A stretch of DNA of 16,481 bases from a virus (Duplodnaviria > Heunggongvirae > Uroviricota > Caudoviricetes), in IMG/VR virus record IMGVR_UViG_2563366825_000024; one strand, 5' to 3'. The notes under the pieces are model-generated. The model had not been told where the DNA came from. It ran no database searches and saw only the letters and a program-made list of their open reading frames with translations. A program made the translations under genes and the position numbers. Below are positions 1-5,688 of the stretch, in pieces (position 1 is the first letter of the stretch; each line of letters begins with the position of its first letter).

Positions 1-3000
1 CACAAAACGCGATGCAATTGTCTCTTCCGGTGTCAGACTGCTGGTACGGGAGTAATACGGCCCCTTGCGAATATCTTCAGGATAGAGTATTTTATCTACA
101 GAGCCGCGATAAGAACGCTCCTCTTTGGGCAATTGGAGCCCACTGTACTGAGGGTTATCGCGGCTTAATTTCTCCTTCCGGTAAAGCGTTAATCCAGCCA
201 TTTCCATACTTTTCAGCTTTTTCCCGTTTTCCGTACCGTAAACAGATGCCACCTTGTTAATTTCCAGACGTTTATCTGTCGCCTTCATATGCACTGCCGA
301 GACGACCGGATCACCATTTTTATCCACAGCATCAAGCAGCATCACAACCGCATTTCTTTCTGTCGCGGAACGGTAAATTGCATCCGGATTGTGCATCAGT
401 TCCGGAAGTCTCTCGATAACATCCATTGGCACCACATGTTTCACGCCATTGGTAGCCTTCCGCACAGTGTCGCGGGAGATAACCAGCGGCAAATCTGGTG
501 CGCCAAGGTGGCGCAATACCGGCGGCGTACGCCCGATGTTTGCAGTCATTGCACCAGAACGTAACGACTTCATCATTCTGGCAAGGTCATCACGATAACG
601 CTCGCCCTCACCTTCCGGCACTTTGAACGGATCAGGCTTACCGCTACGGGAGTACTGAGACGATGCGCCAGCGCCATCCTCACGCGGCGTGTAACCTTCC
701 CGCACACGCTGGCCTAACGTGCGAATAGTTTCGCGAACAAGTCTGATATCGTTCAGCTCTGTCGGCTTCAGTAACCCCGTGCGACGCAGTACCCCTTTGA
801 CCAGGGCAACAACACGCTCCCACGCCGCCACAAATTTATTCGGCTGTTTCTCCGCCATATGTGCCAGAAATTCACCTGCCTGCACTTCCGGTGATTCCTT
901 ACCATAAGACGCATCAACCTTACGCCAGGCGTCACGGATGGTGGCGTTATCACTGTCACGGGTTTTCAGTACGGTCTTAATAATCGTCTGATATTCCGCT
1001 GGCGTGACTACATGCTCCATTGCATGGTGAATAATCTCGTGACGTAACTTCTCGCGAACGGTCCGCCCGTCAGGGATGTTATCCGCCACCAGGACAATTT
1101 CACGTTTATCCGGACGATAGAACGCATGCACCCTGCCGTAACCGTCGAACGATTCACCCGCCAGCGCTTCAGCCTCTTTCTGTGACTTCACCACGCGGAC
1201 CTTCAGGTCACTGTCCTTAATGCCACTCATCACGCCACGGGCAACCGCTTCAACCTGCGGGACCGGGCTGCCTTTGGCTTCCGCACTGCGGTTAACATCC
1301 GAAATGAGATTGCCTTCAGGTGTGCGGGTCACGCCCTTACGGGAATAAAACGCAACGCCCTTGTCCGTCTTACGGGTTTTCAGCGTACTGAACAGGTGAT
1401 CGAATGCATCACGAATACCGCCATCCAGTTCCGCATTCGTCGGATAAGCCCAGGTGTTATCTGTGTTGTGCTCAGGTGCCTTACGGATATTGACCAGATA
1501 ATCATTCTCCACGCCAGCCGTACGCGCTTTATCCTGAACATAACGCTCAAAGGCACGCGCCGCCATTTCAACATCCGTTGACCAGTACGGTTTTGAGCGC
1601 ACCTCATCGAGAAGCGCTGAACGACGCGGCATGTCACTGCTGTTGATCGCTTTCATCACGCCTTTAAACGCGTCGTAAACCTCCTGACGTACCGGATATT
1701 CCGCATCAACATATCTGCCGTCTTTAAATACGCGCCCGGCACGTTGTGCTTCCGTCATATAGTCGCCACCTGACGTGATCTTCCCGTCAGTGGAAACATC
1801 ATAACGACCAAAATAATTATCCAGTGAATGGAACCATTCGTGGGCCAGCGCCCCCGGTCCGTTACCTTTTGTCAGGTTGATTGCCACCTCACCCGGCTCA
1901 TAGTGTGCCGCCGCCTTACCCTTACCACGGGCACCAAAAGCAAGCCCAAGACGACCATTCAGGGAAAGCGCTTTTGTCGGAACGTTCAGCACGTCAGCCA
2001 GGTCATGCAGCGAGTCATAAGCCCGGTTCAAATCAGCCTGACGACGCGGACCTTCCACATAATTACCAAACTGCACACCACGGAAACCAAACGCATCACT
2101 GAACTGCTCCGGCGAAACATCCCCTTTGCGGCGTTCTGGTCCGGTGCGGTCGCGGTTAGTGGCGTTACGCTGCTCCTCACGCGAAATCTCCCGCATCTCC
2201 TTCACATGACGAACAAGCTCATCACGATGTGAATCAATGTACTTACGCGCATCACTGGCTGACTTAAAACCACCTCTCACCCGCATTTTGTTTTTGCCGT
2301 AAGCGATAAAAATATCGCCACTACGGGTATTCCGGTAAACGTCAAAGCTGATTTTGTCATCTGGTGACGGTGCTGTTTTTTCATCACCTTTCGCCCGTGA
2401 CTTTTCCTCCTGCTCTGCAAACCAGGCTTTCGCCTTTGTCAGTAATTCATCCCTGCTTTCCGAGAAAAAGAGGTTACTCCCCTTATTGTCCTTATTGCGC
2501 AGTGAATAAAGTTTCTGTGGCGGATCGTAACGCTTCCCTCCGGCCGCCTGATACACACCGGATACCACCCGATAAGCAGAAGCCTTGTCCATCTGTGAGG
2601 GTGGCAGAGTGCGTAACAGTTGCCAGGTATCCGCGTAACGGGAGGGCATTCTGCCTTCCATCCATTCTGCGAGGCGTTTCGCGCTGACCGTTCCGTTCAG
2701 CATTTCCGATACACTGTGTCGTACTTTTTTTACGCTCTCCCCCCAGCCAGCCGTATTGTGTTTCGTCTTCGCCGGAATATCGCTACGATACAGCGCTATC
2801 ATTGCCAGGGTGTCAGCATCAGCCCCTTCGCTCGCCAGTTTTGCGTAGTCCGGTTTCGGGAACAGTTTGCTCAGCGGCTGCGTGGCATAATCCCTGTCTT
2901 CCAGCGTTTTACCCAGTGTTTCAGCAAGCTGTGCATAACGGTGTTTGGCTGCCCCTTTAATTTCCTCGCCAAAGTCTTCAATTTTTTTGCCCCTGACTTC

Positions 3001-5688: not shown

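Follow-up and report, generated by a model that had tools for sequence, protein, structure and literature searches.

A giant cysteine-free protein of short-tailed Shiga toxin-converting phages with two predicted zincin domains, a predicted RNase domain and an N-terminal module homologous to that of the N4 virion RNA polymerase

The viral DNA stretch IMGVR_UViG_2563366825_000024, analysed over its whole length of 16,481 nucleotides (the window), carries at its left end a giant open reading frame (ORF) on the minus strand. The start codon is the ATG at 5688, preceded by a GGAG Shine-Dalgarno sequence 6 nucleotides upstream, and the frame is closed on the upstream side by the stop codon of the preceding gene. 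As an earlier note made on this DNA from its letters alone had reported, the frame is open for 1896 codons and still without a stop at base 1; because a minus-strand frame runs open to that base, the missing part is the C-terminal end of the protein. The full-length protein, which the note had proposed to recover, was obtained from a prophage copy in Escherichia coli SW070917 (gene at 9310-17688 of the prophage locus; RefSeq WP_021571280.1, "LPD38 domain-containing protein"). It is 2792 amino acids (aa) long and shows two amino-acid differences from the window protein in the common part (E261A and A297D). Window positions 1-10982 are a near-perfect match to this prophage, which carries an N4-gp56-type major capsid gene and in which the giant gene is the final gene of the structural operon. 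PHROG 616 (annotated function unknown) matches the protein end to end with 3998 bits. At 90-95% DNA identity the gene was found in 186 phage records, each from a short-tailed Shiga toxin (Stx)-converting phage (Sepvirinae) or a close relative. Phage phi24B gp47 and the 933W-type giant ORF (PHROG 616; WP_021571280.1; P13374 ORF78) are orthologues with 92-95% identical DNA, a PHROG match end to end, and the same domain order and gene neighbourhood; for gp47, nothing substantive differs at the protein level. The features of the giant protein that fall within the window are the following:

1-5688, minus strand: giant ORF, residues 1-1896 of the 2792-aa protein, translated without a stop; PHROG 616 match
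5089-5154, minus strand: hydrophobic segment, residues 179-200, a Kyte-Doolittle peak
4432-5157, minus strand: N-terminal block, residues ~178-419, a homologue of the schitovirus virion RNA polymerase N-terminal domain (N4 gp50 ~221-438)
4414-4467, minus strand: glycine zipper GxxxGxxxGxxxG (G412, G416, G420, G424)
2989-4371, minus strand: linker rich in Pro, Glu, Gln and Arg, residues ~440-900, poorly conserved
2092-2541, minus strand: Pfam LPD5 (PF18799), residues 1050-1199, E 1.3e-45, the N-terminal part of the zincin 1 module
1372-2148, minus strand: predicted zincin metallopeptidase domain 1, residues 1181-1439, catalytic core plus Pfam LPD1 (1360-1439)
1828-1842, minus strand: HEWFH, residues 1283-1287, first predicted zinc-binding motif
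1567-1569, minus strand: E1374, invariant Glu within "LPD1", candidate third zinc ligand of domain 1
637-1284, minus strand: predicted zincin metallopeptidase domain 2, residues ~1469-1684, no Pfam model
1024-1041, minus strand: HEIIHH, residues 1550-1555, fitting HExxH or HExxxH
871-873, minus strand: E1606, Glu invariant in 144 of 144 relatives, candidate third zinc ligand of domain 2
169-444, minus strand: MuF_C / PBECR domain (PF18819), residues 1749-1840, a predicted metal-independent ribonuclease (RNase)

The N-terminal module is established, by profile comparison of the sequences, as homologous to the N-terminal domain (NTD) of gp50, the virion RNA polymerase (vRNAP) of phage N4 (Schitoviridae; PDB 9pnr, 11go, 11gp). 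Searched against the PDB, a profile of the N-terminal block matched N4 vRNAP chains (E 3.8e-6, residues 228-445); on N4 gp50 it scored 24.3 bits, the best of 2000 locally shuffled decoys reaching 1.4. An independent alignment of 11 schitovirus vRNAP N-termini matched the block in hhalign with 98.0% (E 2.1e-13, 208 columns). A local hhalign matrix with nine full-length vRNAPs gave 97.6% for the block against the NTD and, as negative controls, at most 0.3% against the RNA polymerase (RNAP), C1 and C2 domains. The hydrophobic segment is aligned to N4 gp50 where membrane-spanning helices are predicted (224-278). The glycine-zipper stretch GAALGAAMGAPFGAVAGY described in the earlier note is present, at residues 408-425 (window 4414-4467), slightly to the left of the 4430-4490 given there; its Gly columns are kept in 32-38 of the 38 family N-terminal blocks and give weak Pfam Gly-zipper matches. 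Residues 200-600 are rich in Ala, Gln and Glu (A 15-18%, Q 7-9%).

Among 124 related giant proteins, the block of residues ~150-500 is always N-terminal where present (in about 45 of them), the central enzymatic modules differ in order and content, and a conserved block of about 900 aa (residues 1886-2790) is always C-terminal. The linker region ~440-900 is common to just 2-11 of the 124, with residues 550-880 almost unconserved. Behind the same N-terminal block some relatives have different cargo, namely a methyltransferase with ddrB-ParB and LPD39, or an Sbno-type helicase, and an orthologue fragment from Salmonella enterica (P0012) has a phosphoribosyltransferase-like module between LPD1 and zincin 2; this variation supports a design in which a scaffold carries exchangeable cargo. 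The NTD of N4 gp50 alone inserts into nanodiscs, is followed by a linker of ~100 aa (907-1006), and has been proposed to form, with gp51, the inner-membrane part of the ejectosome (PMC13434306). The linker of the giant protein is comparable in role to residues 907-1006 of gp50.

The two proteins are alike in further respects: N4 gp50 also has one HExxH zincin-like domain, no cysteines, giant size and the last position in the structural operon of a phage with an N4-type capsid, and it is carried inside the capsid, invisible by cryo-EM. Cysteine is absent from all 2792 residues of the giant protein, from 103 of 125 related giants and from each of the nine schitovirus vRNAPs examined (3336-3571 aa each), and we therefore infer that these proteins stay unfolded and free of disulfides on their way through the tail channel and the oxidising periplasm. 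The N-terminal membrane-associating domain is, however, the only hallmark of N4-type gp50 proteins recovered, the T7-like single-subunit RNAP and the pair of C1 and C2 domains not being so: no RNAP domain was matched by Pfam, every block of the giant protein gave at most 0.4% against an RNAP profile, and the C-terminal block is unrelated to N4 C2. The copy numbers also differ (~19 for phi24B gp47 against 4 +/- 1 for N4 gp50), and the Stx phage is temperate and uses the host RNAP.

Both HExxH motifs lie exactly where the earlier note had placed them (HEWFH at residues 1283-1287, window 1828-1842; HEIIH at residues 1550-1554, window 1027-1041), and its estimate that about 0.05 such motifs would occur by chance was of the right order of magnitude: shuffling the 1896 residues 20,000 times gave 0.033 motifs on average, and two or more with a probability of 0.0004. 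In predicted structures both motifs fall in zincin (gluzincin) folds, with the core of a helix, a three-stranded sheet and two helices, and both have an invariant His/Glu/His and a downstream Glu. The description of the protein as having no recognisable enzymatic scaffold has accordingly to be abandoned, also in view of the predicted PBECR RNase domain; and the reservation that the HExxH regions might not be peptidase folds fails, because both motifs lie in predicted zincin folds. The structural matches are to protein endopeptidases (lethal factor, Pro-Pro endopeptidases (PPEP), MtfA, MATCAP, SprT/Wss1 and ArdC). Both domains share the predicted fold and the HExxH...E pattern of candidate ligands with the anthrax lethal factor and Pro-Pro endopeptidase (ATLF-like) and ArdC-type zincins, but sequence identity to these is 6-18% with no family-level sequence match, and zincin 2 has an unusual HExxxH spacing in most relatives.

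The HExxH motif of domain 1 is kept in at least 90% of 62 sequences, and the candidate ligand E1374 lies on helix 333-351 of the predicted structure, in which LPD5 was modelled jointly with the zincin core (predicted local distance difference test, pLDDT, 87). The NCBIfam model CLCA_X (NF041907), of zincin type, matches residues 1181-1436 with E 1.5e-44 and 152 bits, below its cut-off of 260, so that the giant protein appears related to CLCA_X without being a member. With a His on strand 2 and an Asp three residues past the HExxH, zincin 1 fits the phage clade described by Iyer et al. The LPD5-zincin-LPD1 module also occurs on its own, as a phage gene of 333 aa. Within 637-2541, Pfam covers zincin 1 by its flanks only (LPD5 and LPD1), and the HExxH core is without a model.

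Judged by motif spacing, zincin 2 is placed in the HExxxH clade, the HExxH reading being found just in the giant protein and its closest relatives: 135 of 144 relatives have HExxxH only, and six (the giant protein and its closest relatives) fit both spacings. The motif residues are conserved as H in 142, E in 144 and H in 144 of the 144, and E1606 lies on helix 142-155 of the predicted structure. The domain fits the HExxxH clade described by Iyer et al. (PMC5512222). A zincin 2 profile gave only noise against PDB sequences, and Pfam searches with 36 zincin 2 members gave merely sub-threshold M76, M78, M10 and MATCAP matches at the motif. No Pfam model covers the domain despite at least 437 cluster representatives, which marks a gap in the domain libraries. 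Recent duplication was ruled out as the origin of the two zincins, which hhalign aligned over 18 columns with 31%. A Pectobacterium protein (P0018) considered as a stand-alone zincin 2 plus MuF_C protein proved to be a fragment of a decayed giant gene.

PBECR domains are predicted metal-independent RNases whose first helix has a His and a late strand a Ser or Thr (PMC5512222). The sequence of the third domain agrees with this definition: it exceeds the gathering score of MuF_C (PF18819, 66.6 bits against a cut-off of 27.6), and 32 of 32 relatives share H1751 and S1815. The "metallopeptidase" label given to MuF-C in a preprint on phi24B (10.64898/2026.04.10.717836) does not fit the definition of the PBECR family. 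The C-terminal PBECR of phage Mu gp30 (MuF) has the same Pfam MuF_C match; it is described as catalytically inactive, whereas the predicted catalytic His and Ser of the giant protein are invariant, and the N-terminal portal-binding part of MuF is absent from the giant protein. Past the window edge, LPD38 matches residues 2475-2680 far above its Pfam cut-off.

The earlier note could not assign the protein to a family; the LPD and MuF_C domains and the zincin folds now do so. Its likening of the protein to the "polyvalent" phage proteins that are delivered with DNA is borne out by LPD5, LPD1, MuF_C and LPD38, all far above their cut-offs, and by the presence of the phi24B orthologue in virions. 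As in the polyvalent proteins described by Iyer et al. (PMC5512222), unrelated effector domains are combined in one giant, with a zincin metallopeptidase hub, PBECR and LPDs, in a phage structural context and with cargo rearranged among relatives: two zincins, PBECR/MuF_C, LPD5, LPD1 and LPD38 provide at least two unrelated effector or enzymatic domains, encoded in the Stx-phage structural operon. The searches of that study with the N-terminal region of N4 vRNAP reached no protein outside N4-like phages, whereas here the region is common to the giant-protein family. The full protein had no match in a sequence search against the PDB. In agreement with the earlier note, no P-loop, methyltransferase, transglycosylase, RHS or RTX match was obtained with Pfam, NCBIfam or PADLOC, the last giving no match at all on the giant protein.

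In phi24B, gp47 was found in purified virions by mass spectrometry while unseen by cryo-EM, and was proposed to be an ejection protein; it is annotated with 2811 aa, its numbering being that of the window protein plus 18 (10.64898/2026.04.10.717836). (The preprint is inconsistent on its size, giving 2811 aa once and >3000 aa once.) With 12,608 spectra from 422 peptides and 93.6% coverage it is second only to the capsid protein, and its copy number is estimated at ~19 per virion (range 11-35). The top four gel slices gave 2188, 1686, 1187 and 1260 counts, against 663 in the 80-kDa slice of the portal peak (10.64898/2026.04.10.717836). Peptides over both zincin active sites were seen in these virions (GNGPGALAHEWFHSLDNYFGR over HEWFH and LRHEIIHHAMEHVVTPAEYQTIIK over HEIIHH). 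The signal at the top of the gel together with these peptides indicates that the polyprotein is packaged as a whole and that most of it keeps a very large size in the virion.

Upstream of the giant gene the window contains the following features:

5708-5727, minus strand: terminator-like hairpin and T7 run, ~20 nucleotides upstream of the giant start codon
5773-8412, minus strand: four cysteine-free ORFs, candidate co-packaged ejection proteins, as the next four lines
5773-7035, minus strand: ORF of 420 aa
7046-7297, minus strand: ORF of 83 aa
7307-7759, minus strand: ORF of 150 aa
7756-8412, minus strand: ORF of 218 aa
8963-9103, minus strand: Hok/Gef-type toxin
9337-10074, minus strand: Ail/Lom outer-membrane protein
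10983-16481: IS3-family (IS600-like) transposase, IS30, a 272-aa ORF, the N-terminus of a Tn3-family transposase (DUF4158) and a recombinase region

In their order and sizes, the four ORFs correspond to phi24B gp48, gp49, gp50 and gp51 (gp48 421 aa, gp50 161 aa and gp51 260 aa in phi24B), and one gp51 peptide matches the 218-aa ORF with one substitution. Phi24B gp48, gp50 and gp51 are present at ~20-40 copies in virions and are missing from the cryo-EM model (10.64898/2026.04.10.717836), and they are candidate ejectosome partners of the giant protein. None of the four ORFs contains a cysteine; the next two contain 3 and 5. No Pfam family was found in the four except Gly-zipper in the 83-aa one. 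A homologue search with the 420-aa protein gave only E. coli orthologues with 78-93% identity, and the protein had no match in the PDB. The 83-aa product is called "bacteriocin" in RefSeq and carries a YMGG-type glycine zipper C-terminally, resembling in style the one of the giant protein; its weak detection in phi24B was set aside in the preprint as a contaminant, given the "bacteriocin" annotation. The 420-aa ORF is intact in the window at ~6408, where SW070917 has a 1-bp indel and is annotated as frameshifted. The hairpin between the 420-aa gene and the giant gene has a 7-bp stem with 6 G-C pairs followed by T7, and is identical in phage PhiR12_3 and the SW070917 prophage; its possible effects are a limitation of expression to late transcripts antiterminated by Q, or a reduced dose of the giant protein. 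The Hok/Gef and Ail/Lom genes are morons of the late operon, flanked by the tail genes on one side and by the genes of the putative ejection proteins on the other.

To the right of 10982, IS3-family, IS30 and Tn3-type DNA takes over, and the prophage is therefore regarded as truncated at that point. This DNA (10983-16481) is 100% identical to E. coli plasmids, e.g. NZ_CP060058.1; the junction at 10982 was absent from every complete E. coli genome in the collection searched.

Taken together, the product of the giant ORF is probably a polyvalent "ejection" protein carried inside the virion by short-tailed Stx-converting phages, its domains strung like beads on an N4-gp50-type scaffold with protease and RNase cargo. 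The beads would follow in the order N-terminal module (~150-440), linker, LPD5/HEWFH/LPD1 gluzincin, HExxxH zincin, PBECR/MuF-C and LPD38 block, the polymerase of the N4-type delivery scaffold having presumably been swapped for protease and RNase effectors. By homology with N4 gp50, the protein would exit unfolded via the tail once this opens, its N-terminal module would enter the inner membrane as part of an ejectosome, probably with gp48, gp50 and gp51, and the cargo would refold in the cytoplasm. The conserved catalytic residues and the model of Iyer et al. suggest that the zincins would then cut the linkers of the polyprotein and/or host proteins, and that the PBECR RNase would act on host or defence RNA.

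Several observations weigh against this interpretation. Sharing with N4 gp50 is demonstrable by profile comparison solely for the N-terminal module: profiles of zincin 1, zincin 2, MuF_C and the C-terminal block gave nothing above decoys on N4 gp50, the C-terminal block reached only 0.7% against N4 C2 in hhalign (no similarity), and the zincins showed only a weak, superfamily-level resemblance to N4 C1 (53% and 17%). The neighbouring proteins are likewise without detectable similarity to N4 gp51-gp55, and phmmer found no match between the neighbour ORFs and N4 gp51-gp58. With most of its signal in the uppermost part of the gel, gp47 is unlikely to be processed extensively before it is ejected; nor is any processing known for N4 gp50, another protein with an HExxH domain. 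Finally, the window copy sits in a truncated prophage and so may never be packaged.

The alternative that survives best sees the zincins as effectors aimed at the host, which once injected would cut defence proteins or other proteins of the host, with no self-processing, a reading we consider plausible though somewhat short of an even chance. The mostly unprocessed state of gp47 in virions speaks for it, as do the uncut transfer of N4 vRNAP and ArdC/TraC1 (PMC5512222), the nearest folds, which are those of toxins and effectors that have particular proteins as targets (lethal factor, PPEP), and the solo 333-aa phage gene, in which the LPD5-zincin-LPD1 module has no polyprotein to process. Two distinct zincin clades stand beside long linkers in the giant protein, however, and zincins form the hub of polyvalent proteins with every type of cargo, which fits a housekeeping role in processing. 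The mostly intact state in virions and the solo module point to at least some zincin activity being directed at other proteins, or being exerted only after entry.

In the model of the phi24B preprint (10.64898/2026.04.10.717836), a trans-periplasmic conduit consists of gp47 or is lengthened by it, and the gp47 "metallopeptidase" breaks down peptidoglycan to let the conduit reach the inner membrane. Podophages do have a cell wall to cross, and searches of gp47 and its four neighbours gave neither a lysozyme nor a transglycosylase domain. Cleavage of peptidoglycan stem peptides by zinc peptidases is also known. The peptidase was, however, placed in MuF-C, a domain of PBECR RNase fold, and the real zincins match protein endopeptidases and not the LAS, M23 or M15 peptidoglycan peptidases. 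Since the domain is mislabelled and the zincins resemble protein endopeptidases, we regard this role as unlikely; cell-wall attack in polyvalent proteins is moreover assigned by Iyer et al. to lysozyme and DD-peptidase domains (PMC5512222).

That the HExxH domains are inactive structural relics, the protein being merely a scaffold or internal-core component, is highly improbable, as 62 and 144 diverse sequences keep the His/Glu/His and the downstream Glu without exception or almost so, with the first His of zincin 2 lost in only 2 of 144 relatives. A tape-measure protein, adhesin (two identities that the earlier note had kept in view) or RTX/RHS-type secreted toxin, suggested by protein size and by one UniRef name of the neighbouring 420-aa protein ("tail tape measure"), is effectively refuted by domain content: Pfam, NCBIfam and PADLOC gave no such matches and no tandem repeats were found in the giant protein, and the phage is a podovirus with an N4-type capsid, whose orthologous protein is inside the capsid and not on the tail.

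The giant protein, its family and its class are already catalogued in databases and the literature, and an ejection role has been proposed for its orthologue. The published phi24B annotation comprises LPD5, LPD1, LPD38 and MuF-C only, the two zincins and the N4 link being unmentioned. Added here are the assignment of both HExxH motifs to predicted zincins, one split across two "LPD" models and one unmodelled (HExxxH), the corrected label of MuF-C, the family-wide avoidance of cysteine and the N-terminal homology with the N4 vRNAP NTD. This homology is apparently unreported, as searches by Iyer et al. with the N4 vRNAP N-terminal region gave nothing outside N4-like phages (PMC5512222) and the phi24B preprint never mentions N4 or vRNAP (10.64898/2026.04.10.717836); no earlier report of the link between the N4 NTD and the giant Stx-phage protein was found in the literature examined.

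In short-tailed Stx phages, which disseminate Shiga toxin genes among E. coli, the giant gene is the largest (14% of the genome), and its product the second most abundant virion protein by spectral count. With two predicted intact zinc-protease domains, a predicted RNase and an N4-type membrane module, a "hypothetical protein" would become a testable effector of early infection, which would connect the N4 ejection system with temperate lambdoid podophages. More broadly, the N4 gp50 module may be a general ejection and membrane-anchor scaffold of cysteine-free giants with a swappable payload: RNA polymerase in schitoviruses, proteases and RNase in Stx phages, and methyltransferase with ParB or helicases elsewhere. 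In that case Stx phages would inject ~10-35 inner-membrane-anchored copies, forming an N4-like ejectosome with gp48, gp50 and gp51, and the zincins would free or activate cargo after entry. We see the case for this wider proposal as evenly balanced; if true, it would explain how phages deliver diverse enzymes with their DNA, and would suggest a natural chassis for protein delivery.

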